Shown here piece after piece: positions 19,525 to 53,718 of a stretch of 64,000 bases of DNA. This stretch comes from an uncultured archaeon. Its GTDB lineage: Archaea > Aenigmatarchaeota > Aenigmatarchaeia > QMZP01 > QMZT01. The notes beneath the pieces are model-generated. The model ran no database searches, was not told the DNA's origin, and saw only the letters and a program-made list of their open reading frames with translations. A program made the translations under genes and the position numbers. The stretch covers positions 97,656-161,655 of the forward strand of contig CAZTJN010000001.1 of the NCBI GenBank assembly GCA_964613955.1, read 5' to 3'. Position 1 is the first letter of the stretch. The number at the start of each line of letters is the position of its first letter.

Positions 19525-20571
19525 ATGCTCTCCCTGATAAAACCGGTTCTAAGGACAAAGATAAACAGGAGACTCGGAAGGTTCAACTTTCCCTATAAAT
19601 TAAACCTTCACGTAACCTATGCCTGCAACCAGAGATGCAAAACCTGCTTCATATGGGAGAGGTACAGAAAAAAACCCGAACTTATAAGAAGGGAACTGAA
19701 TATAAATCAATGGAAAAGGTTTTTTGAGAAACTTGGCGAAAATCTTTACTGGATTTCCATTTCAGGGGGCGAACCTTTCATCAGGGGGGATTTGCCCGAA
19801 ATAATTTCTTCCATAAATACCAAAAATTTATGCATACTGAGTGTCAACACCAACGGGCAATTGACAGAAAAGATATACAATATAGTAAGAGAATTGCTTG
19901 ACACAGTTCCGGAAAATGTCAAGGTTTTCCTCGCTGTGAGCCTTCTCGGAAAGGAGGATACCCACAACTTCATTTCAGGAAAAAAAGACGCCTTCAAAAC
20001 ATCAGAAAAGACATACAAAAAACTTAAATCTTTACAATCCAGACACAAAAACTTTTACCTTGAAAGGGAGCTCGTTGTAAACAAAAACAACCTTGATGAA
20101 ATATATGAGGTAGTCGAAAAACTCAACAAAGAGAAAATTCCGTTCACCATTACATTCTCCCAAGAATCTGAATATTACGACAACGTAGGAAAAAATGTCG
20201 GTCTGACCCCCGAGGAAAGAAAAAGGACCGCTAAAATCCTCAAGAACCTGAGAATTCCCCTGTACCAAAAAGCGGATTTTATCAAACACATTTTCAAAAA
20301 AAATGCAATCAGATTTTTTGAAAGAGGTGAAATTCCTAAATGCTATTCTTCATGGTGCTCTGTCAGGATAGATCCCTATGGAAATGTCTACCCTTGCATC
20401 ATGAGAAACGATAAAATAGGCAACCTTACGGAAAATGACATGGACCTAGAGAAAACGCTCCTAAAAGGCGATATACTTAGGATACAAAAACTTATAAAGG
20501 CAGGTAAATGCAACTGCTGGACGCCGTGCGAGGCCTACCACAACATTGTACAAAACTTCCCGTTTCTATAG
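19525..20571 (+). CDS. Radical SAM protein with SPASM/twitch-like C-terminal auxiliary-cluster domain
   Basis: 'CNQRCKTC' is the CxxxCxxC radical SAM motif. C-terminal 'CYSSWCSVRIDPYGNVYPC...CNCWTPC' Cys array. Confidence 0.8.
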   Translation: MLSLIKPVLRTKINRRLGRFNFPYKLNLHVTYACNQRCKTCFIWERYRKKPELIRRELNINQWKRFFEKLGENLYWISISGGEPFIRGDLPEIISSINTKNLCILSVNTNGQLTEKIYNIVRELLDTVPENVKVFLAVSLLGKEDTHNFISGKKDAFKTSEKTYKKLKSLQSRHKNFYLERELVVNKNNLDEIYEVVEKLNKEKIPFTITFSQESEYYDNVGKNVGLTPEERKRTAKILKNLRIPLYQKADFIKHIFKKNAIRFFERGEIPKCYSSWCSVRIDPYGNVYPCIMRNDKIGNLTENDMDLEKTLLKGDILRIQKLIKAGKCNCWTPCEAYHNIVQNFPFL

Positions 20572-20574
20572 CAT

Positions 20575-21906
20575 TCAAATCCTCAAAACAGTTTTCAGGA
20601 GGGTGAAGAACATTTCATAGTCACCCTTCCGGAAAAGGGTTTGCGTGTTTAAAACATAATTTAGGTAGTAGTATGCAAACTTCAAGTCGATATCAGGGAT
20701 CCTTGAAAAATTATGGTTTTTTGAAAAATTAAATTCTATCCATCCCTCTGTTGAACCGGGCAGGTGGAAGCCATTCCTTAGTACGAAATTGTACAAAGCG
20801 GTTCCGGGATATGGCTGATAAAATCCAGCGTAAAGCACACTTTTCAGTCTCTTTGCCAGTTTAAGTGTTTTGGAAAGGTCCCCCCTTGTTTCCGTCGGGA
20901 TGTCAATCATGAAGGAGGCAACAGACCTCAGGCCTATCTTGTTGCAGAAATCAAAAATATCAACAATTTGTTCAGTGTTCGTTCTTTTGTTTAGGAAGTC
21001 TAGCATCCTCTGCGAGCCTGATTCCACTCCGAAAAATATGTATTCGCAACCGTTTTCTTTGAAGGTTTTGAGCATTTTCTTATTCGCATCGGTAACCCTC
21101 AGTTGACACCCCCATCTCACGTCATGTGTTTTGAAAAGGTGTGACAGCTTTATTGCCCTCCTCATATCAGTCCCGACAAAGTTATCTTCATAATCAACTT
21201 TCAAGGCCTCGATTTTTGGGTAAGAAGATAGGAGATTCTCCAGATTTTCTCTCACCCTTCCCAAAGAATATGCCCTCCAACCTTCGCGGTAAAAAACCTT
21301 ATTGTAGCAGAAGTTACAGTTGTACGGACATCCGCGGGAAGTCGGCAAGGCCATTGTCTTCAAACCACCAATCCACCTGAAAGCATAATCATTGATATTA
21401 ATAATGTCCCAAGGTATGGGAGGCAGAGAATCCAGTTTTTTAATTGGGCTTTCTGAAATGTTGGATATTATTTTCCCGTTTTTCTTGAAAATAACCCCCT
21501 TTACCTTCTTGGGATTTTTCAGATTCTTTAGCAGGTCATTAAAGGCAATGTCCCCTTCCCCGACAACAACAAAATCTACATAATCCTCCTTTATTACCTG
21601 ATAAGGGAGGAGGGAGGGGTGAACACCACCCCAAACCACTTTCGCTTGTGTATTTTCCTTTGAGAATTTCGAAATCTCAACACAGGATTTTAACGATTTT
21701 CCGGTCCAGCTGGTAAGTCCCATTACATCAGGGTCGGTTTTTTTTATTATTTTTTTTGCTGTTTCTACCGATATTTTATTGCAATCCAAGATCTCAACAT
21801 CGTTGCCTTCTTTGTACGGCAGCGCCGCTATCTGCATGAGCCCCAGAGGTATAGATGGGACTTTACCGGGAAATTTTGTTTCCGGGTTTACGAGCAATAT
21901 TTTCAT
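20575..21906 (-). CDS. B12-binding domain radical SAM protein (class B)
   Basis: N-terminal Rossmann-like B12-binding region 'MKILLVNPE...LGLMQIAALPYKEGNDVEILD...DVMGLTS', then 'TSRGCPYNCNFCYN', the CxxxCxxC motif. 443 aa. Confidence 0.85.
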   Translation of the reverse strand: MKILLVNPETKFPGKVPSIPLGLMQIAALPYKEGNDVEILDCNKISVETAKKIIKKTDPDVMGLTSWTGKSLKSCVEISKFSKENTQAKVVWGGVHPSLLPYQVIKEDYVDFVVVGEGDIAFNDLLKNLKNPKKVKGVIFKKNGKIISNISESPIKKLDSLPPIPWDIININDYAFRWIGGLKTMALPTSRGCPYNCNFCYNKVFYREGWRAYSLGRVRENLENLLSSYPKIEALKVDYEDNFVGTDMRRAIKLSHLFKTHDVRWGCQLRVTDANKKMLKTFKENGCEYIFFGVESGSQRMLDFLNKRTNTEQIVDIFDFCNKIGLRSVASFMIDIPTETRGDLSKTLKLAKRLKSVLYAGFYQPYPGTALYNFVLRNGFHLPGSTEGWIEFNFSKNHNFSRIPDIDLKFAYYYLNYVLNTQTLFRKGDYEMFFTLLKTVLRI

Positions 21907-22966
21907 TTTTCCTCCTGAGTACGGAGTCGAAAACTATGTTTAATTCTTCCTGGCAGTTCCATACACATTCTTTGCAGTTCAGTAAGTTCAAACGTAAAGT
22001 TTCATATAACTCTGAATACCAGAAATCCTTGATATTGAGGTTGTGGATATTTCCTATTTTCTTCCCAAGTTCAAACATACCAAAGCAGGGATAAATATCC
22101 CCATTCGAATCTATTACCACTGTTAAAAATCCAGCCCCGCATGCCCTTGACCTTTCTCCTTTGAGAATAAATTTTTTAATTGTTTCCAGGTATTTTTCAG
22201 TGTTGTCTATAATTCCCTTCTCCCTCTCTATGTTTACTATCTTGTTCACTATTTCCTCGAGTTTGTTTTTTTGACATTCAGAGAAAGAGAGGGACTTCTT
22301 CATGTTAAAATTGTGCACCGGTATGAAACCTATATTTTTAATCCCGAGATTACTCAAGAAGTTCACGGTTTCTAGCAGCCTATCCAAGGTTTGGGGGGAT
22401 AATAAAATATTCACGGTTATCCTTGTTTTGTTGTTGGAAACATTTAACAAATTTTTGATTCCTAGAACCGCTTTGTCGTGCGCACCTTTTATTCCCCTCA
22501 ACCTATCGAAAATTTCAGGATCATCAGAATCCAGCGAAACCGATATTGTATCAACACCAATTTCAGTTATTTTTTTTGCCACAGAATTTGTTATTAATGT
22601 TCCGTTGGTGGATATATCCAAAAACATACCTTTGCCTTTTACGTAATTCATAATTTCGAACACGTCCTCCCTCATGAGCGGCTCTCCTCCTGATATGGAT
22701 ATAGTTGTAACACCAAGTTTTTCGAGATCATTAACCAACCTGAATATTTCTTCTTTTGACATTTCGTTGTTTTTGTATTTCCATAAATTGCACATTTCGC
22801 ACCTCAGATTGCATCTTCTGGTGAGAATCAAGATCGCAAGCAAAGGCGGATGTTTTATTTTCCAGTCCCTGAGAGAAAAATAGGTGCGTATAAAATTAAG
22901 GGATTGTTTAAATCCCTTTGTGCTTAAAAAATTTTTCCGTGCATAAGCTTTGTATTTTTCCCTCAT
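21863..22966 (-). CDS. Radical SAM protein with SPASM/twitch-like C-terminal domain
   Basis: 'LTRRCNLRCEMCNLW'. C-terminal 'CGAGFLTVVIDSNGDIYPC...CKECVWNC'. Overlaps the downstream B12-rSAM gene by 44 bp. Confidence 0.8.
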   Translation of the reverse strand: MREKYKAYARKNFLSTKGFKQSLNFIRTYFSLRDWKIKHPPLLAILILTRRCNLRCEMCNLWKYKNNEMSKEEIFRLVNDLEKLGVTTISISGGEPLMREDVFEIMNYVKGKGMFLDISTNGTLITNSVAKKITEIGVDTISVSLDSDDPEIFDRLRGIKGAHDKAVLGIKNLLNVSNNKTRITVNILLSPQTLDRLLETVNFLSNLGIKNIGFIPVHNFNMKKSLSFSECQKNKLEEIVNKIVNIEREKGIIDNTEKYLETIKKFILKGERSRACGAGFLTVVIDSNGDIYPCFGMFELGKKIGNIHNLNIKDFWYSELYETLRLNLLNCKECVWNCQEELNIVFDSVLRRKNENIARKPGNKISR

Positions 22967-23103
22967 TCAAAGACCTTTTAAAATAGTGGAAGTGAATTTT
23001 AAATAAAGAACTCCACCAGTCTTTGAATGGTGGATGATAGAAATCATATTCAAGGGCGTGACCTAGAAATCATACACCATCATGCTACCGGAGAATGTAA
23101 AAA

Positions 23104-23124
23104 GACGCATGCTTGACATGCGTC
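23104..23124. other. Hairpin-forming inverted repeat GACGCATG-cttga-CATGCGTC in an unusually long (315 bp) intra-cluster spacer
   Basis: 8-bp perfect arms with a 5-nt loop. Nearby are the 'CACCAgtctttgaaTGGTG' stem and a duplicated GGTGCTT. It lies 3' of the GT-C gene 23282-24844 on the minus strand. Confidence 0.3.
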
Positions 23125-23281
23125 ACCCCATAATCTGACCGGTGCTTGTTGGCAAAACTGGTGCTTTATTTTCCGAACATTTCCAGAGATAAAAGCATCG
23201 CCTTTTCCAAATGATATCTTCAGTGGGTTTTCGATATTTTCCGATTTGCCCATCTTGTAAATTTATTCTATAAATTTTATT

Positions 23282-24844
23282 TTAATCCACGATTTTGTAG
23301 AGACGGGTACACCCTTTCTCTTCAACAAGTGCGAGCGTATGATTCTTTTTCAGCTGATCGAAAATCAGTCTCCCGTATCCGAAAAACGTGGTATCGCACA
23401 TAGTATGGTTTACGTACAGGTAGTATTTCCCTCCCTTGTTTCTGCATCCTGAAAAAGAGGAAGTTAGATGTTTATCAGGCAACAATATTTTCATAACCAT
23501 TTCTGGGGAAGACATGCAATAATTTGACTGGGAGCTCTCGAAAAGCAAACAATCGTTATCCTTCACATAACTTCCGAAATGGATTATATTATCAATAAGA
23601 CAGTCGTCTTTTTCGAAGACGAAAACGTTCGTGCTTGAATGAAACAGTAATAATATTAAAATCAATACCACGAAAACGCCTGTAGTTCTAACCATATGCG
23701 GTATCCTGAAGGGAAATCTATTCTCCACAGTTCGCTCAACCAAATCCTTTGCTTTGAAAATACCGTAGCCCATCAGGATCGCCAGTGCTGGCTGCAGTGT
23801 TAGCTGATATAACTGCGGGTTGGTGTAAAGTGTTGCCCAGTACAGACCGTAAAAAAGAAAAAAGAATGCCACCCACGAAAACAGGAATATGAGACTGCGT
23901 TCTTTTGATACAAAAAGAAGAGAAAACAAAAGAAAGGCATAGAGAATGGTGGGATAAACATAGGGTTTTGCCAAATTTGAAGAAAGATGATATTGAACGT
24001 TTGGTATTAAGTACCCCAAGGAAAATGTTACAGGCCGTTCCTCATAATGAGGGTCTCTTGCCGGACCATAGATATTATCACCTATAATGTAATAGTAGCT
24101 GACAGGTATCATGAAAATCAAGAATATAAGCAAAGGGATTTTCAATTTTTTAATCTGGAATTTCTTCCTGTTTAAAATGAAATCCATAATGAACAAAGGT
24201 ATGAATATGGAATTGTCTGTTCTTACGTGGAGAGAAAACACGAGGAGCAGTAGGAAGAGAAGGTAAAGACCCCTCTTTCCTGCCTTAATCGAAATGAAAT
24301 ACATGAGAAATGTTAGCATGATAAAAAAGACGGACGTTACCTCGCTTGCATTGAGTTTTGCAAGGATAACAGACATGGGAAAAAGAGAGTATATCAAGGA
24401 GGAAAACAAAGCCACATAGTCCCTCTTGAAAAGAATATATGCGAGAAGAAAAATCATCAAAATAGTTAGCGAGCTCAGGAGCAGGTTAAGATAGAGAATG
24501 ACATTGTAGTTTGAACCAAACAAAAAGAAACCCGCTGCCATCAGTAAAGAATACCCTTTGGGGTGCCAGAAATCCTCCACAATCTGGTTTTCCAGCATAT
24601 TTACAGATGTTTTCACATAACTCCAGCAAAGCCCGTTGGGCGAGCTACATCCTGGGGAAGTGAATCTCAAATACGAACCCAAAAGAAAAATTAAAATGAA
24701 TGCCACCCAGACATGTATTTTTATTTTTCTGAAAAAAGAGGCAATATTTCTTATGTTGGCCAAAATCAATACACAAATCAAAACAAAGTTAATAAGTAAT
24801 ATGTAAAGTAAACTGCCGGAAAGGAAAGACTGAAAATCAAACAT
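23282..24844 (-). CDS. GT-C fold membrane glycosyltransferase, PMT/ArnT-like (GT39/GT83 family), paralog group A
   Basis: 520 aa. N-terminal polytopic domain (10 or more TM helices) plus C-terminal soluble domain ending '...LYKIVD'. The TM2 region 'KIKIHVWVAFILIFLLGSYLRF' is shared with five other paralogs. Confidence 0.6.
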   Translation of the reverse strand: MFDFQSFLSGSLLYILLINFVLICVLILANIRNIASFFRKIKIHVWVAFILIFLLGSYLRFTSPGCSSPNGLCWSYVKTSVNMLENQIVEDFWHPKGYSLLMAAGFFLFGSNYNVILYLNLLLSSLTILMIFLLAYILFKRDYVALFSSLIYSLFPMSVILAKLNASEVTSVFFIMLTFLMYFISIKAGKRGLYLLFLLLLVFSLHVRTDNSIFIPLFIMDFILNRKKFQIKKLKIPLLIFLIFMIPVSYYYIIGDNIYGPARDPHYEERPVTFSLGYLIPNVQYHLSSNLAKPYVYPTILYAFLLFSLLFVSKERSLIFLFSWVAFFFLFYGLYWATLYTNPQLYQLTLQPALAILMGYGIFKAKDLVERTVENRFPFRIPHMVRTTGVFVVLILILLLFHSSTNVFVFEKDDCLIDNIIHFGSYVKDNDCLLFESSQSNYCMSSPEMVMKILLPDKHLTSSFSGCRNKGGKYYLYVNHTMCDTTFFGYGRLIFDQLKKNHTLALVEEKGCTRLYKIVD

Positions 24845-24884
24845 CCAGACACCACTATTGTTTTAGCGTCTCAGAAATTAAAAG

Positions 24885-25313: not shown

Positions 25314-25427
25314 ATTTTACTCTCCATATGTTTTATAATTTCGCAGAATTGATTTTATATAATCTGAATTTGAACGAATTACTTTCGATAACGTTTGGTT
25401 TAAATTCCGAATATTTTTCAGGCAGAT

Positions 25428-26022: not shown

Positions 26023-26063
26023 CCAATAAGTTTTTGGATTTGAATTTTAAAAAATGTTACCCT

Positions 26064-27413
26064 TTAGGATGTAATGAATCTCAGGGCATGGAATCCTCTT
26101 TTAATATCTCCAAACGATCTAATTTTTTTGAACTGATCTAAAATGTAACTACCCCTTAAATAATATCTTTTGTATACCTCTCTCTGAATTTTTATCAACT
26201 CATCTTGCGTAAACATGCAAATTTCTTTTGGTCCTTTTCTATACATTTCAGATCCCGGGTATATAATTATTGGATTAAACTGTACGTAGTCCGGTTTTAG
26301 CATTTTCATTAGCCTGAAACTTTTTTCTACAGAGTCCTTCGTTTCTCCCGGGGACCCTATAATTACGTATGATAAAATTCTTATACCTGCCTTTTTGGTT
26401 AACTCAAAAGCCTTTTTAGTTTCTTCAAGTTTCACCTGCTTTTTCATTTTGTCCAGTATCTTCTGGTCCCCGCTTTCGACACCATACGCTATTACTGAAC
26501 ATCCAGCAGTCTTCATTTTCTCCAGCAAAATTTTATCAACCATATCAACCCTTGTTGCACATATCCACTTGATGTCCATTTTTTCCCTTGTTATGAGATC
26601 ACATATCTTCATCGTTCTTTTCCGGTTCAATGTGAAGTTGTCATCATAAAAGACAATGTTCTTGGTTTTTTGCATATCCACAACTTCCCTCAACTCCTCG
26701 AAAACATTTTCAACGCTTCTTTCCCTGTAGGGGCCGTAGACCCTTCTGGAACAATACACACAATTGTATGGGCACCCTCTCGTGGTGAGAAACGTTGTCA
26801 TGGGTCTGTCTATCAGAATGTGACCGTAAATTTTTGTTTCCAAGAGTTCTCTGGACGGGAAACTTATAGAATCGAGGTTGTTTGTATAGCATGGCTTGTT
26901 TATGTGTGTCTTCTTGTTAAATTTTAAACACAAACCCATCGTGTTTTTCAGATTTCTTTCATTTCCAAAACTTTCAACCAAATTCCTGAAAACAATTTCC
27001 TGGTCCCCTCTTATGATAAAGTCCACATATCTGAGGGCGCGCTCTGGAAATGTGCTTGCAAACGGACCGCCAGCAGCCGTAACAGCATTCAGACCTATCG
27101 ATTTCATTTTTGCTGAAAATAGCCTTATCCAGTTTTCCAAGTCACCCATCACAAAATCGCAGTAGTTGTTTGGTATAATTCCGATAATATCAGGCTTGCT
27201 TTCATATATTTTTTTCAGACATTCTTCGATCCCCATCTCTTTTGCATAGCAGTCCATTATTTCGACATCGGCCAGACCTTTTAGTGATGAAGCGATGTAG
27301 GCCAAATTCAGGGGAGGTGTCACGAACAATGTCTTGTAACCATCCAGCCTGCCGAATCCGGGGTTTACCAAACAGACTTTAATTCTATCACCTTGTATAT
27401 CAAAACCGAACAT
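26064..27413 (-). CDS. B12-binding domain radical SAM protein (class B)
   Basis: 'IKVCLVNPGFGRL...LAYIASSLKGLADVEIMD...DIIGI', then 'TTRGCPYNCVYCSRR'. 449 aa. Confidence 0.85.
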   Translation of the reverse strand: MFGFDIQGDRIKVCLVNPGFGRLDGYKTLFVTPPLNLAYIASSLKGLADVEIMDCYAKEMGIEECLKKIYESKPDIIGIIPNNYCDFVMGDLENWIRLFSAKMKSIGLNAVTAAGGPFASTFPERALRYVDFIIRGDQEIVFRNLVESFGNERNLKNTMGLCLKFNKKTHINKPCYTNNLDSISFPSRELLETKIYGHILIDRPMTTFLTTRGCPYNCVYCSRRVYGPYRERSVENVFEELREVVDMQKTKNIVFYDDNFTLNRKRTMKICDLITREKMDIKWICATRVDMVDKILLEKMKTAGCSVIAYGVESGDQKILDKMKKQVKLEETKKAFELTKKAGIRILSYVIIGSPGETKDSVEKSFRLMKMLKPDYVQFNPIIIYPGSEMYRKGPKEICMFTQDELIKIQREVYKRYYLRGSYILDQFKKIRSFGDIKRGFHALRFITS

Positions 27414-27474: not shown

Positions 27475-27488
27475 GGAAAATTATAAAC

Positions 27489-28187
27489 ATGATAACCCCG
27501 CAGATTTCTTTTGTTCTCCCCGTGTTTAATGAGGAAATGAACATCACGGGTGCTGTTGAGGATATTGTATCAGCGTCAGCTTCCTTGGGTCTGGGAAGAT
27601 ATGAAATAATCATTGTCAATGACGGCAGCACGGACAGCACAAAAAGGATTTTGAATTCTTTGCGCAAAAAAATAAAGATGCTGAGAATCATAAATTTTGA
27701 AAAAAACAGGGGCTATGCAGACGCCCTGAAAGAGGGATTCAAAGCTGCTAAGTACCTGCTTGTCTTTTACACTGATGCAGACAGGCAGTGCGACATAAAG
27801 GAACTGGGCTCCCTTCTCGACGCTATGGAGAAATACAAATGCGATTGCATTTTCGGTTACAGAAAAGAAAGGAAAGATTCATTATACAGAATTCTGGCTA
27901 CATGGGTGTTCAACGTACTTGCAAGAAAAATGTTCGATCTAGATTTAAGGGACATAAATTGTCCGTTCAAACTTTTCAAAAAAAGAGTGCTCGATAATAT
28001 TCAAATAAAATCAAAGGGGTTTTTGGTAGATCTGGAATTGGCCACGAAGGTAAAGCACTGCGGATTCATTATAAAACAAGTTCCGGTGACACACCGCAAG
28101 AGATATTCCGGGAAATCAAAGGTCAAGTTCAGAACTATATTTAAAACATTCTTTGGTTTATTAAAATTGAGAAAATATGAAATTTAG
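27489..28187 (+). CDS. GT2 glycosyltransferase, polyprenyl-phosphate sugar synthase-like (Dpm1/ArnC-like, soluble)
   Basis: 'ISFVLPVFNEEMNI...EIIIVNDGSTDSTKRIL...FYTDADRQCD' are the GT-A DxD motifs. 232 aa. Confidence 0.85.
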   Translation: MITPQISFVLPVFNEEMNITGAVEDIVSASASLGLGRYEIIIVNDGSTDSTKRILNSLRKKIKMLRIINFEKNRGYADALKEGFKAAKYLLVFYTDADRQCDIKELGSLLDAMEKYKCDCIFGYRKERKDSLYRILATWVFNVLARKMFDLDLRDINCPFKLFKKRVLDNIQIKSKGFLVDLELATKVKHCGFIIKQVPVTHRKRYSGKSKVKFRTIFKTFFGLLKLRKYEI

Positions 28188-44010: not shown

Positions 44011-45777
44011 ATGGATATTTTTACCCTTTACACTGAAAATTTGATCCCTCTGCTCTGTATACAAGTCGTAGTTTTCCTGTTGTTATTCTTTCTGAACATG
44101 GAAACCTTCAAAAGAGAATTCAGGAATGTGGATAAGAGGTACCTCATATTTTTGGCGGCTCTTGTCTTCATGATGCTGGCTTTGTATTCAAACACCACAG
44201 GATACGAGGGTGATTGGAAGTTTTGGCCAATGTCTGTAGCCAAGGACTTCTCCATGGGCAAAACCAATCTGTACTTCATGGACCCGTCAACTGTCAAGGG
44301 AAGAGTGGAGGGAAGGGACCCGTACCCTTGGGGACCGCTGACACCATTCCTACTTGGCATATTTTATTCGATATTAGGCATAAGTTCAGGAACAGTCTAC
44401 CTGTTTTACGGAACTGTACTCGCATTAAGCATGATTTCATTTTTCTTTTTGGGGTATATTTTGTTCAGGGACGGGAAGGTTTCAATACTTCTGGTATCTC
44501 TCTTTTGCATGGTTTTTCATGAAAGTTTTTTGGGAGGAAGTCTGGCGGAGTTTGACCTCGTCTTGCATTTATTTGTTTCCATGAGCCTGCTTTTTTCGTT
44601 AATGGCGTACAAAACGAACAAACATGTAATGTATATGCTCTCTCTTGTTTCCATTCTGCTTGCGGCGGAGATAAGATTTGAAGTCCTCGTTTTGTTCCCC
44701 GTATTCATCACGGGCATGCTCCTCTACAGAGTAAAGGACATGAAGAGGGTAAAGGAATTCTGGCTAAAAGGAATCGCTCCTGCAATGCTACTGTTCTTTG
44801 TCTTCCTGCCTGTCATTCTCACTCACGGATTTTCACATCATTTCTGGTCGCACAATGAAAGGGTATTTGGTCAATTCTGGGGCAATTCAATCTTCCCATC
44901 CATACCCGAGGGCGCAGGTATAACTATGGACGGCTTCCTTTACTTCTGGACTCATAACTTATTTTTATTCTTGACACCGTTGATGCTGATAGGGTTATTT
45001 GTTTCCTTAAAAAATAAGAAATACAGAAAGGTTGCTGTCTTGCTGTTGTTGCTTTTTCTGTTGCACAACTATGTATTTTTCAAATGGGATAACGGATACG
45101 AGGAGAAGTACGCATTCGCCTCAGCAGTTCCGTACATTTTACTTGCAGGATTGGGCATTAACGGTATCGTTAATTTTAAAGAAAAGCCCAAGTTTATAAA
45201 GGTAGGCACTATCTTGATTGGTATCTACCTTGTGTGTGTCTGGGGAGTTTTGTTTTCAGGTTTTCTTTATGACAAGAAAACTTCGGACCCCCTTGATACA
45301 AGCGACTTCGAGGAAGATGTTAAATCAATCCAAAATTATATAACAGGGGAAAAGCCAAACATACTGATGATGTCCACCGAGAGTACCAATCATAAATTCG
45401 AATTTCTTACTTTGTACAGCACCCTGGACTTCTTCAAGTATATATCAGATAATTTCTTGATTAGGAACTATCTTGGTGGCGAAAATGAATTTGGTATCAA
45501 CTTCCAAAGGGGGGGATTTTATTTTAATTCAACCTTGGAAGAAGTTCAAAGCAGGGTTTCTGAACTGTCAATGAATTTTACAGTCGAACGCATCATGAAC
45601 AATAAAACTATCCAAGAAATTATAAAGGATACTCTACTCACCAATAACACGTACGCAGTTTACGATAAATGCGGTTGTTGTGAATCGGAAATCACTCACA
45701 AAATCCTGACTAATGTTTTTAATACCGAGATTTTGTATGAAGGTGAATGCCTGAGACTTTATCATGTAGGTGGTTAA
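44011..45777 (+). CDS. GT-C fold membrane glycosyltransferase, PMT/ArnT-like, paralog group A
   Basis: 588 aa. 'FRNVDKRYLIFLAALVFMMLALY'. C-terminal '...ECLRLYHVGG'. Confidence 0.6.
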   Translation: MDIFTLYTENLIPLLCIQVVVFLLLFFLNMETFKREFRNVDKRYLIFLAALVFMMLALYSNTTGYEGDWKFWPMSVAKDFSMGKTNLYFMDPSTVKGRVEGRDPYPWGPLTPFLLGIFYSILGISSGTVYLFYGTVLALSMISFFFLGYILFRDGKVSILLVSLFCMVFHESFLGGSLAEFDLVLHLFVSMSLLFSLMAYKTNKHVMYMLSLVSILLAAEIRFEVLVLFPVFITGMLLYRVKDMKRVKEFWLKGIAPAMLLFFVFLPVILTHGFSHHFWSHNERVFGQFWGNSIFPSIPEGAGITMDGFLYFWTHNLFLFLTPLMLIGLFVSLKNKKYRKVAVLLLLLFLLHNYVFFKWDNGYEEKYAFASAVPYILLAGLGINGIVNFKEKPKFIKVGTILIGIYLVCVWGVLFSGFLYDKKTSDPLDTSDFEEDVKSIQNYITGEKPNILMMSTESTNHKFEFLTLYSTLDFFKYISDNFLIRNYLGGENEFGINFQRGGFYFNSTLEEVQSRVSELSMNFTVERIMNNKTIQEIIKDTLLTNNTYAVYDKCGCCESEITHKILTNVFNTEILYEGECLRLYHVGG

Positions 45778-47201
45778 CTTCTAGTTTTCTGAATTTCAAA
45801 AAGAAACCTTGTTGTCTTCCTCACGAGTTCCATTTCATTCATTACTCCTATTCGTAGCAGATTCTTCCAGTGTCTCAAGATAAAAGAAGGGCGTGCGTAG
45901 TATTTCCAGTAGAACTCTTTCTGTGCTCTCATCAGTCTTCCAGAGGGGACATTGCTGAAGTTGTGGATAAGTGTATCATAATGTGAAAACCTGCTAAAAA
46001 GGAATTTTTTCCTAAACTTTTCAAATATTGGCGAACCAGGATAGGGCGTAAAAAAAGCGACCTGTATGAGGTCAGAATCAATTTCCAAGGCGAGCTTGAA
46101 CGTTTTCTCTATCTCTTCCATGGTTTCTGTGGGACACCCTATCATAAAGAAGCAAACGGTAAACATATCCTCTTTATTTATCATGGAGGACGATTTTTTT
46201 ATCTCTCTCACCGTTATGCCCTTTCTCAATATATTCAGAATTCTGTCAGAACCGGATTCCACACCAAAACAGAGCGTTTCGCACCCGGAACTCTTCATCT
46301 CTTTTAACATCTCCCTGTTTATGTGGTTCAGTTTTATCTGTGCCGCCCATCTGACGTTAAGCTTACGTCTCTTCATCTCTTTGCATAGTGCAAGAACCCA
46401 TTTCTGATCGAAAGAAAAATTATCATCAAGGAAGAATATAGACTTAACCCCGAACCTATTTGTAATATATTCCATTTCATCAACTACATTTCTAGGGGTT
46501 CTTTTCCTAAACTTCTTCCCGTATGATACCCTGAGGGTCGGTGAACAAAATATACATTTGTATGGACACCCCCTGGTAGCTATGATGAAACCCCACTTAG
46601 TTTTTTTCGAAGCTGAGGGATAATAAATTCTGTAAAGTCCATTGGAGAACCATTCGTGTTTTGGGTAGGGAAGCGAATCCAGATCTTCTATTAACCTCTG
46701 TGGTTTTGTCTTAACAAACGAATTTCTCTCAGAATCAAAAAATGCGATTCCTCTTATCTTTCTGAAATTTTTTTTATTTCTCGACAAAGAGTTACACACA
46801 TCCAGAATAGTTTTTTCGGCTTCACCTATCATACAAATGTCAACTGGGGAATTTTTAAAAACCAATGTGTCTGGCAAGGCACTGGCATGCTGGCCCATGA
46901 AAATTATTTTCGAAGCATATTTTTCCTTGAAATACCTTGCCAATTTCATTGCGACCTCATATGCTGCGGTAGTCAAATGTATGACAACTATGCTTGGTCT
47001 GACTTTCCAGTTGAGAATCGTCCCATAAAAGTTTTTTTTGAAGATAGAATCAATTATGTGCACATTATAACCGTTCTTTTCCAAAACAGCTGCGCAGTAA
47101 CCAATATCCAGAGGGGGCTGAATGTTTATTGGGTGCTCCTTCTTAAAAACCAGATTGCTTGACAAACGAATGAACAAGATATTTTTCAATTTATCACCCA
47201 A
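45774..47201 (-). CDS. B12-binding domain radical SAM protein (class B)
   Basis: 'ATRGCPYKCIFCSPT' with an N-terminal B12-binding-like region. 475 aa. Convergent with ORF 44011 and overlaps it by 4 bp. Confidence 0.85.
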   Translation of the reverse strand: MGDKLKNILFIRLSSNLVFKKEHPINIQPPLDIGYCAAVLEKNGYNVHIIDSIFKKNFYGTILNWKVRPSIVVIHLTTAAYEVAMKLARYFKEKYASKIIFMGQHASALPDTLVFKNSPVDICMIGEAEKTILDVCNSLSRNKKNFRKIRGIAFFDSERNSFVKTKPQRLIEDLDSLPYPKHEWFSNGLYRIYYPSASKKTKWGFIIATRGCPYKCIFCSPTLRVSYGKKFRKRTPRNVVDEMEYITNRFGVKSIFFLDDNFSFDQKWVLALCKEMKRRKLNVRWAAQIKLNHINREMLKEMKSSGCETLCFGVESGSDRILNILRKGITVREIKKSSSMINKEDMFTVCFFMIGCPTETMEEIEKTFKLALEIDSDLIQVAFFTPYPGSPIFEKFRKKFLFSRFSHYDTLIHNFSNVPSGRLMRAQKEFYWKYYARPSFILRHWKNLLRIGVMNEMELVRKTTRFLFEIQKTRS

Positions 47202-48339
47202 ATAACATGCGCAGTAGCTTGTGTTTCCTACCTTCGATCTTTATTGCTAGGTTCGGGCAAACCTCCAGACATTGCATACACCCCACACATTTTTTATAGT
47301 CTATCTTGGGAGGCGTAATAGCGTTGGCAGCACACATTTTTACGCACTCCAAACATCTCGAACATCTCTCTTCCAAAATTACTGGCTTTTCCCTTATTTT
47401 TAAAGGGATGTTCAGTTTTTTCAATGGCCACGAGATTATCCTGCTCCTCATCGCCCAATTGTCCAGAAACGACTTCTTTCGTAAAGGGATTTCGAATTCC
47501 AAAGCGGGAATTTCCCCGGAAATTTTTATTTTTTCAAAATTGCTGCCCGGAAGATTCCTTTCTGTTGCATAATTTATCTGTTTTACAGAATGAAAATCAA
47601 CCCCCATAACCTTACACGCAACCATATCAACGCTTATGTTGTTGTCTCCCACTATTAACAAGTCTCCTCTGACAGGTTTCCCGTGTGTTGGTCCTGACCC
47701 CTCCATACCCATTATCCCTTCCACTACCGATAACCTTATTCTGTGGAGAAGCTTTTCATTCAATAAGGCTATCAGCATGTCTATGTTCTTTGAATGGAAT
47801 TTCCTTCTCCCTTTTCTGTTCAGGAACCCCATCAGATTTTTCATTCCCAAGGAAACTCCGGTGAGCGTGTGCGTCTTTAATTTGGGTATGTTTATAATAC
47901 CGTCCGCATCGAAAAGTGTTTTGGGCAAATAAATATCTTCCCTGTCCAATGATATTCTAACCCATTTATCTTCTTCCGAATTTATCAGTTCTATTCTCAA
48001 ATCTTTACACATCCTTTTAAATCCTGTTATCTTCATGGTTTCCTCAAAATCGTAAATCTGTATGGGGGCCTCTATTATCAGGGGTTCGGCTCCGATCCTT
48101 TTAAGATACTTAGCTATTACCTCAACAATCCTTACATCAGTAGTTGCCCCTGTTGAGGAAGGGAATGGCGAAGATATATTTGGTTTGAGCACTATCCTTT
48201 CTCCTTTCTCAGCAAAATTGGATTTATCCAAAACCCTCAAGAACTCCCCTTTTAACGAAATAAAATTTTTGTTCCTCAAGACATAAACCTTGGACATATG
48301 AAATTCTTGACAACAATTTTTAAAAGCCAATAAACTCAT
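47194..48339 (-). CDS. DUF362-domain protein fused to a C-terminal 2x[4Fe-4S] ferredoxin domain
   Basis: C-terminal 'CSRCLECVKMCAANAI' and 'CVGCMQCLEVCPNLAI' are two CxxCxxCxxxCP motifs. The N-terminal 300 aa are typical of DUF362 architecture. Overlaps its neighbours by 8 and 4 bp, indicating an operon. Confidence 0.65.
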   Translation of the reverse strand: MSLLAFKNCCQEFHMSKVYVLRNKNFISLKGEFLRVLDKSNFAEKGERIVLKPNISSPFPSSTGATTDVRIVEVIAKYLKRIGAEPLIIEAPIQIYDFEETMKITGFKRMCKDLRIELINSEEDKWVRISLDREDIYLPKTLFDADGIINIPKLKTHTLTGVSLGMKNLMGFLNRKGRRKFHSKNIDMLIALLNEKLLHRIRLSVVEGIMGMEGSGPTHGKPVRGDLLIVGDNNISVDMVACKVMGVDFHSVKQINYATERNLPGSNFEKIKISGEIPALEFEIPLRKKSFLDNWAMRSRIISWPLKKLNIPLKIREKPVILEERCSRCLECVKMCAANAITPPKIDYKKCVGCMQCLEVCPNLAIKIEGRKHKLLRMLFG

Positions 48340-50349: not shown

Positions 50350-51267
50350 ATGATGTATGTAGTAACAGGCGGTTCTGGCTATATAGGACGTCAGCTCGTC
50401 AAAGATATTCTGAATAAAGGCGGAAGGGCAATAAACATAGACAAGAAAGAACCTCTTGAACCCGTCAAAGGAGAAAGGTTTATCAAGTGCGACCTAACGG
50501 ACAAAAGGAAAGCAAGAGAAACCATAAAATCCCTTGAGCCCGAAGGAGAATACGTTGTGATACATCTTGCTGGTTTGTTCGAGAAGGACGTAAGAAAAAG
50601 GAAACACTGGAAATTCGAGGATTTTCTTTCCATGAACGCCACCACAACAAAGAACCTAGTGGATGGACTGAACGAACAAACTTTCGACATCAAATCATTC
50701 ATCTTTTCCTCTGCCGCCTTGGTTAACTGCTTGGGAAAAATAAATGATTTTTACCCGCGTTCGAAGCTAAAGGCCGAAGAATTTATCAGGAAAAATCCGC
50801 CTTCTGCCTCCACCCACATACTCAGGGTCAGCAGGGTCATAGGAGGGCTTGACAACGGGAAAGTCTCGAAGGACATCGTAAGCGACTTCATAAAAAAATT
50901 CCTCTCCGAAGATGAAATTGTTTTCAAGGGCTCGAACATAAGGAGGGATTACATCCATTTGAATGACGTATGCAGGGTGATTCTCTCCCAGATGGAAAAT
51001 GGCCTGCATATAAAGAATGTTTATTCTTCAGAACAGGTGCAGATGAGAATAATAATTGAGATGATTCATGAGGCATTGCTGAAGAGAGGGCTTATCCAAA
51101 AGAAACGAAAAATCACCTTTCAGGAAGATATTGACAATCCTCTACCCCAGATAGAGGGCAGAAGCGATTTTTCCGGCATTCTTGAATGCAAGACCTCTGA
51201 AGATGTTGTAAAAAGGACGATAGATGAATATATCGAAGCCATGAAGAAAAACATCCCTTTCAAATAG
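50350..51267 (+). CDS. NAD(P)-dependent epimerase/dehydratase-family protein (extended SDR)
   Basis: 'MMYVVTGGSGYIGRQLVKDIL' Rossmann motif. Catalytic 'YPRSKLKAE' YxxxK. 305 aa. Confidence 0.7.
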   Translation: MMYVVTGGSGYIGRQLVKDILNKGGRAINIDKKEPLEPVKGERFIKCDLTDKRKARETIKSLEPEGEYVVIHLAGLFEKDVRKRKHWKFEDFLSMNATTTKNLVDGLNEQTFDIKSFIFSSAALVNCLGKINDFYPRSKLKAEEFIRKNPPSASTHILRVSRVIGGLDNGKVSKDIVSDFIKKFLSEDEIVFKGSNIRRDYIHLNDVCRVILSQMENGLHIKNVYSSEQVQMRIIIEMIHEALLKRGLIQKKRKITFQEDIDNPLPQIEGRSDFSGILECKTSEDVVKRTIDEYIEAMKKNIPFK

Positions 51268-51301
51268 TTTTATTTAAAATTTCCCTTTCAAATTAAAACT
51301 A

Positions 51302-52609
51302 ATGAGCAGGATTGTTGTTCTGGGAGGAGGTATCGCGGGTCTTTCCACTGCCTATTTCCTTGCGAAAGCCGGCATGAAACCAATCGTCTTGGAGAAGGAG
51401 AAGGAAGCGGGCGGTCTCGGATTCTGTCACAGTGTCGGCGATATGTTTATAGACAGCGGATATCACATCATTTTCAAAGGTGACGAGTATCTCCTGAATC
51501 TTTTGAGGGAGCTGAATTTAGAGAAAGATATTGTATGGGGAGACCTTGATTTTAAACTGGTCACCAAGAAAGGAGATATATTTTTCTCCCCGCTTAAAAT
51601 ATTATCAAGCATATGCCTCTCTTTATCCGAAAAAAAGTTCCTTGCGAAAATTTACTTCAAAATGAAAAACACAAAGGACTGGAAATCCCTCGACAAATTC
51701 ACAGCGAAAGAGTGGATAATAAAAAACAGCAGCGGTGATGTATACAAAGATATATTCGAGCCGATAATAAAGGCAAAATGGGGAAGGGATTCGGACAAAG
51801 CTTCTGCCGCATGGTTCTACGGTAGGCTTAAACCGCGTTCTAAATCCAGGAATATCTTCGGAGGAGGGGAAAAGGCAGGATACCTCAAAGGCTCTTTCAA
51901 AAATCTTTTTTCCGTTCTTGAAAGAGAAATAAAAGGTAGGGGAGGGGAAATAATAACATCAGCGAAGCCCACGAGGATATCCATAAAAAACAAGAAAGTC
52001 GTGTCAGTCAAGTATCGTATAAACAAAAACCTGAAAGAAATGAGAACAGACACTCTAATCAGCACCATCCCTGTTGGAGAGCTTCTGAGGATTGCAAAAT
52101 TGCCTGAAGATTTTGAAAGACAGGCAAGAAAATTAAAATACAAAGCTGTGATATGCGCAGTATTCAGCCTGCGGAAAAAAGTGACGAATTCTTTCAGAAC
52201 GATATTTTCTGAAAGGAGGTCCTTCGGCGGTCTTGTCGAGCTCACGAATCTCATAGACAAAAAACATTTCGGCGGTAAACACATACTTTACGTTTTCAAT
52301 TTCCTCAATGCCGAAGAAAGTTTATGGAAATTAGGGGACAAAGAAATTATTGAAAGATACATGAACGATCTCGAAAGGCTCTACTCTAGTTTCAAGGAAC
52401 AGATAATCTGGTATAGATTATACAAAAATCAGTACGGGGAGCCCTTTTATCAAAAAGACTACCTTAACATAATGCCGGATACCAAAACACCTGTAAAGGG
52501 GTTATTCTTAACGGGCATGATACACTCTTATCCTGTTTCTGATTTCAACAACATAGTATCACTAGCCAGCAAAACAGCTGACTTGGTTTTAAGGGAGGTA
52601 AGATGTTGA
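51302..52609 (+). CDS. FAD/NAD(P)-binding oxidoreductase (amine-oxidase / phytoene-desaturase-like fold)
   Basis: 'MSRIVVLGGGIAGLSTAYFLAKAGMKPIVLEKEKEAGG' is the dinucleotide-binding GxGxxG...E motif. 435 aa. Confidence 0.7.
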   Translation: MSRIVVLGGGIAGLSTAYFLAKAGMKPIVLEKEKEAGGLGFCHSVGDMFIDSGYHIIFKGDEYLLNLLRELNLEKDIVWGDLDFKLVTKKGDIFFSPLKILSSICLSLSEKKFLAKIYFKMKNTKDWKSLDKFTAKEWIIKNSSGDVYKDIFEPIIKAKWGRDSDKASAAWFYGRLKPRSKSRNIFGGGEKAGYLKGSFKNLFSVLEREIKGRGGEIITSAKPTRISIKNKKVVSVKYRINKNLKEMRTDTLISTIPVGELLRIAKLPEDFERQARKLKYKAVICAVFSLRKKVTNSFRTIFSERRSFGGLVELTNLIDKKHFGGKHILYVFNFLNAEESLWKLGDKEIIERYMNDLERLYSSFKEQIIWYRLYKNQYGEPFYQKDYLNIMPDTKTPVKGLFLTGMIHSYPVSDFNNIVSLASKTADLVLREVRC

Positions 52610-53718
52610 GCAGAAAGACGGCCCTCTCTATTCTGAAGGGGGTGCTAACGAAGAAAACACCCATTTACGTGCAGTTCGCAGTCACAAAAAGATGCAATTT
52701 GAACTGCAGAATGTGTGGCATAGTGAAATCATGGAAAAACGAAAAGGATTTGGACCTGGATGACGTGGAAAGGGTAGCGGATATTCTCTACAAGCTGAAC
52801 ACAGGCATGGTGATATTTACTGGAGGGGAGCCCTTTTCAAGAGATGACCTCCCGGAGATTGTGAAAATCTTCCATGAAAAAGGCCTGAATACAAGGCTGC
52901 AGACAAACGGGACATTGTGTACAGAAGAGAATGTCAAGGAGGTGGTAAAATCCGGCCTCAATGATATTTCAATATCTTTGGATTCACTGAGCCCGAAAGT
53001 TCAGGACAGTATAACCAATATGAAGGGTTCATGGGAAAGAACAATAAATTCCATATCCTTGTTTTCCCGCATGATGCCCAAGAAAAATTCCATGCCTATT
53101 ATAAACTGCGTTCTTTCGAAAAAGAACATAGCGGAAATCGAAAAAATGGTAAAATTCGTAGATAAAATAGGATTCTATCTTTCCGTTATTCCCGTACATC
53201 TCTTGAAAGAGCGAAGCGAAAGATTCGCCTTCAGGGGTTATGAGAATTCGATGGGTTTTTCGGAAAGGGATTTTGATTTGATAGATCGGACATATTCGAA
53301 ACTCATAGAGATGAAAAGGAAAGGATTTTCCATATACAACTCCCTGAAGTTCCTGAGGGAGAGCCCCGGGTTCATTAAATATCAAATATGCAGATGGAAG
53401 TGTTATTCTCCGTATCTCTATTTCTCTATTTCGCCAAGCGGCCTGTTCTCCCCGTGCATAGATTTACGAACAGATATATCAATCTTGGATGACAGGTTCC
53501 TCGAAATTTATAGGTCAAAGGAATTTGAAAAGAGAATTTCAAGGCAGGTCAGCCAGTGTTCGGGATGCATGTACGGCTGCTGGCCGGAGATTACGTATCT
53601 CTGCGAAGATGTGAAGGTTTTTATAAAGAGGATTTCGGAAGGTCTGAAAATTCTTGGCAGGAAAAGGAAAGGCTTCGATTACGATAGCATTATAAAAATT
53701 ATCAATTCAATATCATAA
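52603..53718 (+). CDS. Radical SAM protein with SPASM/twitch-like C-terminal domain
   Basis: 'AVTKRCNLNCRMCGI'. C-terminal 'CRWKCYSPYLYFSISPSGLFSPC...CSGCMYGCW'. Overlaps the upstream gene by 7 bp and abuts the downstream GT-C gene. Confidence 0.8.
   Translation: MLSRKTALSILKGVLTKKTPIYVQFAVTKRCNLNCRMCGIVKSWKNEKDLDLDDVERVADILYKLNTGMVIFTGGEPFSRDDLPEIVKIFHEKGLNTRLQTNGTLCTEENVKEVVKSGLNDISISLDSLSPKVQDSITNMKGSWERTINSISLFSRMMPKKNSMPIINCVLSKKNIAEIEKMVKFVDKIGFYLSVIPVHLLKERSERFAFRGYENSMGFSERDFDLIDRTYSKLIEMKRKGFSIYNSLKFLRESPGFIKYQICRWKCYSPYLYFSISPSGLFSPCIDLRTDISILDDRFLEIYRSKEFEKRISRQVSQCSGCMYGCWPEITYLCEDVKVFIKRISEGLKILGRKRKGFDYDSIIKIINSIS

Follow-up and report, generated by a model that had tools for sequence, protein, structure and literature searches.

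Four radical S-adenosylmethionine (SAM) enzymes of an uncultured archaeon most likely tailor nucleotide- or polyprenyl-phosphate-linked sugars before these are transferred by GT-C membrane glycosyltransferases, a reading that we hold with moderate confidence. Their genes, termed S1 to S4 (Table 1), lie in a metagenomic stretch of 64,000 nucleotides (nt; ENA ERZ27248458; contig CAZTJN010000001.1, positions 97,656 to 161,655; hereafter the window), of which 18-64 kb, or ~45 kb, make up a surface-glycosylation island with 11 radical SAM genes. Four of these encode the enzymes studied here, which carry a truncated C-terminal iron-sulfur domain called twitch, five encode B12-binding radical SAM enzymes, and two are HxsC4-like. 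The island further contains four family 2 glycosyltransferases (GT2), eight GT-C/PMT_2-type glycosyltransferases and one decayed copy, two short-chain dehydrogenases/reductases (SDRs), a DegT aminotransferase, a flavin adenine dinucleotide (FAD) oxidoreductase, a carbamoyltransferase, and a DUF362-ferredoxin fusion.

An earlier note on this DNA, made from the letters alone, had pointed out the four enzymes, the epimerase genes starting at 29918 and 50350, the DegT gene at 34637, and the glycosyltransferases. All of these are real, but the five B12-binding and two additional radical SAM genes had been missed. The note's preference for sugars over peptides or sulfatases as substrates agrees with the synteny of GT2, GT-C, and SDR genes, the operon of an S1 relative, the adjacency of GT2 or B12-binding radical SAM genes to the S4 family across many phyla, the GT2 fusions, and sulfatases that are not co-conserved; its more specific proposal of BtrN- or DesII-like enzymes serving DegT fares less well. 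When radical SAM enzymes have SPASM or twitch domains, they are usually read as signs of sulfatase maturation or of natural products made from peptides, whereas the four subfamilies described here are tied to glycosyltransferases.

Glycosyltransferases as conserved and fused partners

The strongest single argument for twitch enzymes working together with glycosyltransferases comes from gene fusions that join the same three enzyme types that neighbour each other in the window. An exhaustive HMMER search for S2 relatives returned 348 cluster representatives at E<=1e-30, and among the best 149 of these, for which domain layouts were obtained, 35 are multidomain: eight have the order GT2-twitch-twitch, two are twitch-twitch-GT2-twitch, one links a B12-binding radical SAM domain to four twitch domains, and the other 24 consist of twitch repeats in tandem. 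A GT2 is fused to a twitch radical SAM enzyme in 10 of the 149 representatives and a B12-binding radical SAM domain in one (Pfam-confirmed). The fusion proteins (P0366, P0373, P0374, P0389, P0390, P0450, P0452, P0469, P0367, P0407, and P0472) span 1000-1900 amino acids (aa). In the GT2-twitch fusions, the GT2 precedes a spacer of ~230-570 residues, in which Glu, Lys, Gln, and Leu abound as far as the three sequences read show, and two twitch radical SAM domains come next.

Gene order within the island and in its close relatives is similarly tight. S4 belongs to an operon with the order SDR(50350)-FAD(51302)-S4(52603)-GT-C(53720)-B12-binding radical SAM(55447), in which junctions overlap or are 2 nt apart, the S2 stop overlaps the start of the B12-binding radical SAM gene at 20575-21906 by 44 nt, and the SDR gene at 29918 ends 8 nt ahead of S3. 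The window shares its gene order with metagenome-assembled genomes (MAGs) of Candidatus Aenigmarchaeota at 57-76% identity, and the same group provides the closest named relatives of S3 (76%), S4 (75-76%), and S1 (72%); the orthologues of S1 range from 49 to 72% identity and all named ones are Aenigmarchaeota. Judged by these similarities, the host of the island is an Aenigmarchaeota-like DPANN archaeon. Aenigmarchaeota relatives keep the blocks PMT_2-S2-B12-binding radical SAM, GT2-GT-C-SDR-S3, DegT-B12-binding radical SAM-PMT_2, and SDR-FAD-S4-PMT_2; in the Aenigmarchaeota contig L002, the order is the same for the S2 block and for the SDR gene that heads the S4 operon. The SDR-S3 pair is conserved as overlapping genes in L004 and L005, and the overlap is still present at 65% identity.

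The S4 family reaches far beyond these archaea. Its members form >120 clusters that align from end to end at 35-93% identity, and scanning one genome per GTDB species yielded 454 loci, with carriers among Woesearchaeota, Omnitrophota, Nitrospinota, Planctomycetota/Brocadiales, Thermodesulfobacteriota, Verrucomicrobiota, Patescibacteria, SAR11, and SAR86. Given that the family is also present in cultured strains, i.e. Pelagicoccus mobilis KCTC 13126 and Neptuniibacter sp. SY11_33 (loci L056 and L066), the hypothesis is directly testable. Among the best 80 of the 454 loci, a GT2 is found within 5 kb of the S4-family gene in 51%, a B12-binding radical SAM gene in 35%, and an FAD oxidoreductase in 26% (21/80). 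Both of the former concentrate close to the gene: within the first 2 kb, GT2 genes occur at 1.06 per 10 kb vs 0.18-0.66 farther away, and the density of B12-binding radical SAM genes drops from 0.96 per 10 kb at 0-2 kb to 0.22.

Two types of S4 context can be distinguished. At >=40% identity, the gene occurs in an operon of the form B12-binding radical SAM-FAD oxidoreductase-B12-binding radical SAM-S4-(B12-binding radical SAM), and several of the operons examined then carry a protein of 512-1098 aa with 7-13 transmembrane (TM) segments. A GT-C profile matches some of these downstream membrane proteins in bacteria (L017, 5e-18; L035, 6e-8) and finds no match in the large membrane proteins of L016 and L010. 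At 33-39% identity, the arrangement is a triad of GT2, S4-like gene, and class I methyltransferase, commonly accompanied by SDRs; such triads are found in O-antigen-like loci that also hold SDRs of the GDP-mannose dehydratase type. In L016, L018, L023, L024, L028, and L040, two to three small proteins (170-190 aa, 3-4 TM segments) recur just upstream of the S4-like gene, and Pfam searches of the neighbours upstream of bacterial S4 genes gave four YdjM-family matches, one of them directly upstream of S4 in L016.

For the S1 family, context was taken from 80 metagenomic loci, and neighbour percentages from the 52 with >=4 kb of flanking sequence. Within 4 kb, these contain GT2 (31%), SDR (27%), B12-binding radical SAM (19%), and carbamoyltransferase (13%) genes, and 18 of the 80 loci have a GT-C gene within 5 kb according to an iterated GT-C profile. 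An archaeal S1 relative of 39% identity (L093) is part of an operon of overlapping GT-C, radical SAM, GT2, and PMT_2 genes; HxsD and three radical SAM genes lie beside this operon. Distant S3 relatives (L006 and L008) are uninformative in context, with no glycan genes seen.

Twitch-domain architecture of S1 to S4

All four proteins match Radical_SAM (PF04055) at 48-97 bits, above the gathering score of 29.5 bits, and carry, as the earlier note had reported, a CxxxCxxC motif near the N-terminus (C34/38/41 in S1, C52/56/59 in S2, C39/43/46 in S3, and C31/35/38 in S4), which is invariant in the family alignments. The four are distant paralogues (24-35% identity), S2 and S3 being 35% identical and every other pair 24-28%.

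The C-terminal cysteines set the enzymes apart from full SPASM proteins. In an alignment of 32 S4-family sequences reaching down to 36% identity, C267, C285, C319, and C322 are the only invariant C-terminal cysteines, forming C-x17-C-x33-C-x2-C, and in 35 S1-family sequences the invariant pattern is C273-x17-C291...C329-x-C331-x3-C335. Invariant positions of the S2/S3 group, which was aligned together with AhbD-like relatives, are C277, C295, and C333, with C330 and C337 conserved at >=90%; the corresponding cysteines of S2 itself are C276, C294, C331, C334, and C338. While the C-x17-C spacing is identical across S1 to S4, S1 has CxCxxxC where S2-S4 have a CxxC-type pair, and S2/S3 and their kin have no more than CxxCxxxC. 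The cysteine array proposed in the earlier note is real and conserved, but its CxxCxxxC element does not describe S1, and the Pfam SPASM cut-off (21.5 bits) is exceeded by S2 and S3 only, with S1 and S4 just under it.

The seven-cysteine motif of a two-cluster SPASM domain (CX9-15GX4C ... CX2CX5CX3C ... C) is not found in any of the four, whose conserved C-terminal cysteines number four (S4) or five (S1-S3), and the label SPASM/twitch of the earlier note is thus correct, with twitch as the narrower term. Twitch domains are truncated SPASM domains with one auxiliary cluster, which is held by four Cys ligands in BtrN and three in MoaA (PMC9012708). The pattern of C-x17-C followed by CxxC (S2-S4) or CxCxxxC (S1) fits this definition, and structural models show a strand pair at the hairpin; we accordingly describe the C-terminal domain of S1 to S4 as a predicted twitch domain. 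In each enzyme, four cysteines are predicted to bind a single auxiliary [4Fe-4S] cluster, which would leave a spare fifth conserved cysteine in S1-S3.

At the other end of the proteins, the cluster motif begins at residue 31-52. The mere 30-51 residues ahead of it leave no room for a fused RiPP recognition element (RRE; RiPP, a peptide made by the ribosome and modified after translation), and no N-terminal peptide-recognition domain is present in S1-S4. The longest S3 reading frame begins at 30721 and overlaps the upstream SDR gene; its true start is probably 30877, which gives 364 aa and matches the orthologues, and not 30868.

Comparison with named radical SAM families

The position of S1-S4 relative to BtrN, anSME, PqqE, and DesII was judged from profile E-values, curated cut-offs, and TM-scores. 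NCBIfam and Pfam scans assign an equivalog to none of the four. The best NCBIfam families (AhbD, NirJ, PTO1314, WgkB, StsB, and MoaA) reach 50-150 bits vs cut-offs of 230-850, and the grouping with anSME or RiPP maturases that the earlier note had regarded as potential counter-evidence is not seen, as no curated model is reached. Searches of the PDB with single sequences and family profiles likewise gave superfamily-level matches, GDGT-MAS among them, that do not discriminate function. AlphaFold2 models built from family alignments are of high confidence (S4: pLDDT 93.5, pTM 0.92; S3: pLDDT 89.7, pTM 0.89). In Foldseek comparisons with the PDB, BlsE gives the top TM-scores (0.65/0.73 for S4, 0.67/0.74 for S3), followed by SuiB, SkfB, PqqE, MoaA, viperin, anSME, and DesII, with SuiB as top match by E-value for both S3 and S4. 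Since identities are 14-21% throughout, structure and profile comparisons show architecture and not function. Taken together, S1 to S4 represent four new subfamilies of the known radical SAM superfamily.

The best fold match, BlsE (cytosylglucuronate decarboxylase, PDB 7vob), is also the top profile match of the S4 family (1e-18, with MoaA at 1e-17, BtrN at 7e-4, DesII at 2e-3, and anSME at >0.01). It is similar in size, lacks an N-terminal peptide-binding domain, and acts on a hexuronate sugar ring attached to a nucleobase. However, it is 16-18% identical, the NCBIfam BlsE model is outside the 25 families listed for each of S1-S4, and BlsE belongs to a nucleoside antibiotic cluster whereas the context here is surface glycosylation.

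BtrN (2-deoxy-scyllo-inosamine dehydrogenase, PDB 4m7t) has a core plus twitch layout with one auxiliary cluster on four cysteines (PMC9012708), an arrangement that the fully ligated C-x17-C and CxxC pattern would fit, and it acts on a carbohydrate-like small molecule without a peptide partner. The earlier note had suggested that BtrN- or DesII-like dehydrogenases oxidise a sugar hydroxyl to a ketone, which is then aminated by DegT. The DegT gene is indeed 2.7 kb from S3, and a single operon in L010 has the order SDR-DegT-B12-binding radical SAM-FAD-B12-binding radical SAM-S4. Yet BtrN is matched at marginal E-values (3.5e-4 to 7e-4) and in local, partial alignments, it is outside the top 50 Foldseek matches of the S3 and S4 models, and it is ~100 residues shorter (PDB chains of 269-270). 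DesII is matched at E ~2e-3, with TM-scores of 0.47-0.59 on the query and 0.38-0.47 on the target. Aminocyclitol pathway genes, such as 2-deoxy-scyllo-inosose synthase or similar, were not found in the window. In addition, DegT genes are absent within 2 kb of 77 S4-family genes and rare beyond (12% of loci within 5 kb), there are nearly none near S1 relatives, and one DegT stands against four radical SAM enzymes. The usual source of keto-sugars, SDR 4-dehydratase/epimerase genes, adjoins S3 and lies two genes upstream of S4 in its operon. Given that DegT is not a conserved partner, that SDRs supply keto-sugars, and that specific similarity to BtrN or DesII is missing, we do not favour the BtrN-to-DegT route and regard it as quite unlikely, possibly a special case. 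Dehydrogenase chemistry as such may still apply to S1-S4.

AhbD and NirJ are the highest-scoring NCBIfam families (AhbD 97-151 bits and NirJ2 91-130 bits for S2-S4), and database neighbours at ~30% identity are annotated as 'heme b synthase', which could hint at tetrapyrrole-modifying enzymes. The best score (151 bits, S3 vs AhbD) is far below the cut-offs of 500-650 bits, the AhbD-like relatives in the S2/S3 alignment keep the full SPASM motif (CxxCx5CxxxC, then another C) whereas S2/S3 lack the x5C and the final C, and other haem or sirohaem genes are absent from the Pfam scans of the window. We consider a tetrapyrrole role extremely improbable and AhbD/NirJ identity effectively refuted by the scores. 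The same considerations separate S1-S4 from the highest-scoring named families, AhbD/NirJ, PqqE, anSME, and SkfB, as a group: all share the superfamily and a core with a C-terminal Fe-S fold, but curated cut-offs are missed, the respective substrates (tetrapyrrole genes, PqqA, sulfatase, SkfA) are absent, and the two-cluster motif is truncated.

A proposed route for radical tailoring of activated sugars

The island can be understood as a series of repeated modules, each of which would combine a GT2, tailoring enzymes, and a GT-C/PMT_2 transferase. In this scheme, the GT2 probably loads a sugar onto dolichyl or polyprenyl phosphate, and the sugar would be modified by a tailoring set of twitch radical SAM enzymes, B12-binding radical SAM enzymes, SDRs, FAD oxidoreductase, aminotransferase, and carbamoyltransferase. 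The 5'-deoxyadenosyl radical of the twitch enzymes would attack a sugar that is linked to a nucleotide or a lipid phosphate and remove hydrogen from one of its unactivated carbons, and the fully Cys-ligated auxiliary cluster could then accept an electron to yield a ketone. Alternatively, a conserved Cys thiol might quench the radical, resulting in epimerisation or rearrangement. The B12-binding partners might add C-methyl or related groups, and the GT-C/PMT_2 membrane transferase would finally attach the completed sugar to an acceptor on the outer cell surface. Domain architecture, cysteine pattern, neighbourhood, and GT2 fusions are observed, whereas we infer which substrate is used, by what exact chemistry, and that it is modified at a lipid-linked stage.

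Similar to the Arn, Gtr, and mycobacterial decaprenylphosphoryl-arabinose (DPA) pathways, which employ a GT2 polyprenyl-phosphate sugar synthase, lipid-linked tailoring, a flippase, and a GT-C transferase, the island displays repeated GT2 and GT-C pairs, ArnC/AglJ/PpgS-like GT2s (below cut-offs), an ArnB-like DegT, and SDRs. Bacterial relatives additionally have GtrA and formyltransferase genes (GtrA in L010), and the window yielded no flippase of the GtrA or ArnE/F type. SDR and FAD oxidoreductase genes ahead of a GT-C gene presumably recall DprE2/DprE1, although DprE1 has the vanillyl-alcohol-oxidase FAD fold, unlike the amine-oxidase fold of the island enzyme. These pathways lack radical SAM enzymes, whereas each island module has a twitch and/or B12-binding radical SAM enzyme, and the system would represent a novel version of lipid-linked glycosylation routes that are already known.

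Among documented precedents, the nearest in logic are Cds (calditol synthase) and HpnJ, two radical SAM enzymes for which ring contraction of hexoses attached to lipids has been proposed (PMC13459092). As in the route proposed here, their radical SAM chemistry would act on a lipid-attached sugar after a glycosyltransferase. HpnJ is the best NCBIfam match of the island B12-binding radical SAM enzyme, which scores 209 bits vs a cut-off of 578, and GDGT or hopanoid genes are absent.

If S1-S4 act on sugars, they would constitute a new tailoring class in prokaryotic glycan biosynthesis, with C-H activation on nucleotide- or lipid-linked sugars, and account for part of the unannotated 'radical SAM protein' genes in polysaccharide loci. 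Unusual surface sugars would then be expected in DPANN archaea, candidate phyla radiation (CPR) bacteria, Omnitrophota, and abundant marine bacteria. More speculatively, and we consider this possible but doubtful, radical SAM tailoring of polyprenyl-phosphate-linked monosaccharides could be a widespread and unrecognised step in extracytoplasmic glycosylation, in which twitch and B12-binding radical SAM enzymes together with a phytoene-desaturase-like flavoenzyme would turn simple hexoses on lipid carriers into sugars that are C-methylated, oxidised, epimerised, or carbocyclic, which GT-C enzymes would afterwards place on the cell surface. Through the S4 family alone, this would happen in >450 species that range from SAR11 and Verrucomicrobia to Omnitrophota, CPR bacteria, and DPANN archaea, and a 45-kb island with 11 radical SAM genes would endow a small symbiont with a highly unusual glycan coat.

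Competing substrates and counter-evidence

The observations in this section include those that weigh against sugar tailoring by S1-S4. Neighbourhood enrichment was measured against the distal flanks of the same loci and not against random genomic background. The two GT2s scanned with NCBIfam have ArnC, PgfS, AglJ, PpgS, and dolichyl-phosphate hexose transferase as best matches, all below cut-offs, and the GT2 domains of the fusion proteins may be of another subtype than polyprenyl-phosphate sugar synthases. A literature search, which did not cover subscription journals and is therefore weak as a negative, found nothing on these families or on modules of radical SAM, GT2, and GT-C genes.

Further points of this kind concern lipids, and they feed the main rival explanation, in which S1-S4 modify the polyprenyl or dolichyl carrier or membrane isoprenoids, comparable to HpnH, Tes/GDGT-MAS, GrsA/B, and proposed ladderane enzymes, with the FAD protein and the B12-binding radical SAM enzymes acting on the chain. 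The nearest solved relative of the FAD oxidoreductase at 51302 is phytoene desaturase (PDB 5mog, 3e-13) and a weak HpnE match was also obtained; its NCBIfam assignment (NF005560, 344 bits vs a cut-off of 252) carries the product name 'hypothetical protein'. The B12-binding radical SAM enzymes best match HpnJ, BchE, HpnR, and the 'lipid biosynthesis' family TIGR04072, S4 resembles the C-terminal HpnH domain DUF3463 (25.1 bits vs a gathering score of 31.3), and HpnH itself (TIGR03470, cut-off 225 bits) is matched by S3 with 87.7 and by S1 with 49 bits. GDGT-MAS, as noted above, is among the PDB matches, and radical SAM modification of lipids is well documented (PMC13459092). We nevertheless regard lipid modification as unlikely: its matches all fall far under the cut-offs of the families concerned, a GT2 is the immediate conserved partner and is even fused in some relatives, isoprenoid or lipid biosynthesis genes were not seen in the Pfam scans of the window, and the GT2-radical SAM-methyltransferase triads occur in O-antigen-like loci with SDRs of the GDP-mannose dehydratase type.

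Alternatively, S1-S4 could mature proteins or peptides, either as anSME- or sactisynthase-like enzymes or by modifying the large surface proteins or small Cys-rich proteins nearby. Most SPASM/twitch enzymes are maturases, and the S1 profile is nearest to peptide maturases, namely SkfB without its RRE (2e-23), CteB, and anSME (2e-11); SuiB, with the top Foldseek E-value for S3 and S4, adds to this, as do the two HxsC4-like genes at 61188 and 62684 and two small Cys-rich, membrane-anchored reading frames (19081-19467 and 24885-25313, the latter kept in L002). In one locus (L007), an S3-like radical SAM gene of 30% identity is flanked by two arylsulfatase-type genes (L007:2716-4152 and L007:9168-10667), in addition to GT2, PMT_2, and B12-binding radical SAM genes; no other locus shows such an anSME-style pairing. 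Elsewhere, sulfatases are not co-conserved with the S1-S4 families: they were seen in two of 80 S4-family loci and as one weak match in 80 S1-family loci, essentially none in 160. Two bona fide sulfatases used as queries found no homologue in any frame of the window, and the sulfatase domain PF00884 is absent from its open reading frames (ORFs) of >=150 aa, all of which were scanned with Pfam; the earlier note was correct that no sulfatase is nearby. As for its statement that precursor peptides are lacking, no RiPP-like precursor ORF is present in the four intergenic gaps read beside S1-S3, a result that includes no S4 gap and no systematic search for small ORFs. Peptide-maturase models of NCBIfam all score far under cut-off, with anSME outside the 25 families listed per protein (PDB anSME, E 3.6e-6 for S2), and both the RRE and the two-cluster SPASM motif are missing. 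Maturation of proteins or peptides appears very unlikely to us on this basis, and sugar tailoring remains the reading that we prefer.

Further features of the island and its surroundings

The genes of the island are compiled in Table 1.

Table 1. Genes of the glycosylation island with positions in the window.
Feature	Position	Strand	Evidence and remarks
S1, radical SAM with twitch-like C-terminal domain	19525..20571	+	348 aa; PF04055 48 bits; SPASM 20.5 (below cut-off)
S2, radical SAM/twitch	21863..22966	-	367 aa; PF04055 96 bits; SPASM 36.6
S3, radical SAM/twitch	30868..31971	+	364-367 aa; PF04055 96.5 bits; SPASM 30.5; directly downstream of SDR 29918-30859
S4, radical SAM with 4-Cys twitch domain	52603..53718	+	371 aa; PF04055 97 bits; SPASM 16.6 and DUF3463 25.1, both below cut-off
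B1, B12-binding radical SAM	20575..21906	-	PF02310 + PF04055
B2, B12-binding radical SAM	26064..27413	-	PF02310 + PF04055
B3, B12-binding radical SAM	40889..42271	+	PF02310 + PF04055
B4, B12-binding radical SAM	45774..47201	-	PF02310 + PF04055; overlaps DUF362-ferredoxin gene
B5, B12-binding radical SAM	55447..56853	+	PF02310 + PF04055; best NCBIfam HpnJ 209, BchE 199, both below cut-off
GT2, nearest polyprenyl-phosphate sugar synthases	18312..19088	+	PF00535 127 bits; NCBIfam ArnC, PgfS, AglJ, PpgS below cut-off
GT2, ArnC/AglJ-like	27489..28187	+	Pfam and NCBIfam scans
GT2	33893..34633	-	Pfam scan
GT2	35742..36602	+	Pfam scan
GT-C membrane glycosyltransferase (PMT_2)	23282..24844	-	PF13231; 9 TM-like segments
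GT-C paralogue without Pfam match	28198..29880	+	phmmer 5.5e-22 to PMT_39193; 11 TM-like segments
GT-C (PMT_2)	32238..33884	-	Pfam; TM-like segments
GT-C (PMT_2)	39193..40836	-	Pfam; TM-like segments
GT-C (PMT_2)	42288..43976	+	Pfam; TM-like segments
GT-C paralogue without Pfam match	44011..45777	+	phmmer 7e-16 to PMT_39193; 12 TM-like segments
GT-C (PMT_2)	53720..55450	+	Pfam; TM-like segments; 2 nt downstream of S4
GT-C (PMT_2/PMT)	56857..58539	-	Pfam; TM-like segments
SDR nucleotide-sugar epimerase/dehydratase	29918..30859	+	PF01370 175 bits; GalE/RmlB-like, below cut-off; conserved S3 partner
SDR, divergent epimerase family	50350..51267	+	PF01370 79 bits; first gene of S4 operon; same order in L002
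FAD oxidoreductase, amine-oxidase/phytoene-desaturase fold	51302..52609	+	PF01593; overlaps S4 start by 7 nt
DegT/PseC-like sugar aminotransferase (PseC/LegC/ArnB-like)	34637..35710	+	PF01041 334 bits; PseC 261 vs 423 cut-off
DUF362 + 2x[4Fe-4S] ferredoxin domain fusion	47194..48339	-	Pfam; overlaps start of B12-binding radical SAM 45774-47201 by 8 nt
NodU/CmcH-type carbamoyltransferase	58542..60065	-	PF16861 + PF02543; also near S4 and S1 relatives

The five B12-binding enzymes B1-B5 are paralogous (26-34% mutual identity) and interleaved with the twitch enzymes and GT-C genes. The DUF362-ferredoxin protein, whose gene is preceded by that of a 7-TM protein (48336-49142), could possibly be an electron donor dedicated to the radical SAM enzymes. 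Two further radical SAM genes, 61188-62117(-) and 62684-63649(-), share 31% identity; the first has HxsC4 as best match (170 bits vs a cut-off of 500), and neither gives a SPASM or B12-binding Pfam match at E<=0.001. A His-Xaa-Ser peptide ORF was looked for around them, at 60-64 kb, and not found.

Several intervals of the island differ from its syntenic relative L002 or defy annotation. The 751-bp gap at 25313-26064 contains short ORFs resembling fragments of a membrane protein, and an intact PMT_2 gene of 551 aa occupies this place in L002; the interval is probably a decayed GT-C pseudogene. A 316-bp non-coding gap (22967-23281) separates S2 from the GT-C gene at 23282-24844, two genes that abut in L002. 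The soluble 544-aa protein encoded at 36604-38238(+), with zero Pfam matches and zero TM segments, lies between a GT2 gene and that of a membrane protein of the LPG_synthase_TM family (38221-39156). The small Cys-rich proteins at 24885-25313(-) and 19081-19467(-) measure 142 and 128 aa and have one N-terminal TM segment each; the former has a counterpart of 141 aa at the same position in L002. Scanning the window for tRNAs returned zero genes.

Upstream of the island, 3245-17932(-) encodes giant secreted or surface-type proteins of 773, 406, 543, 845, and 1739 aa with NosD/beta-helix, CARDB, and Laminin_G_3 domains. G+C content is 0.44-0.53 over this region (1-18000) vs 0.30-0.43 across the island (18001-64000). 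It is plausible that these giant surface proteins are the glycan acceptors.

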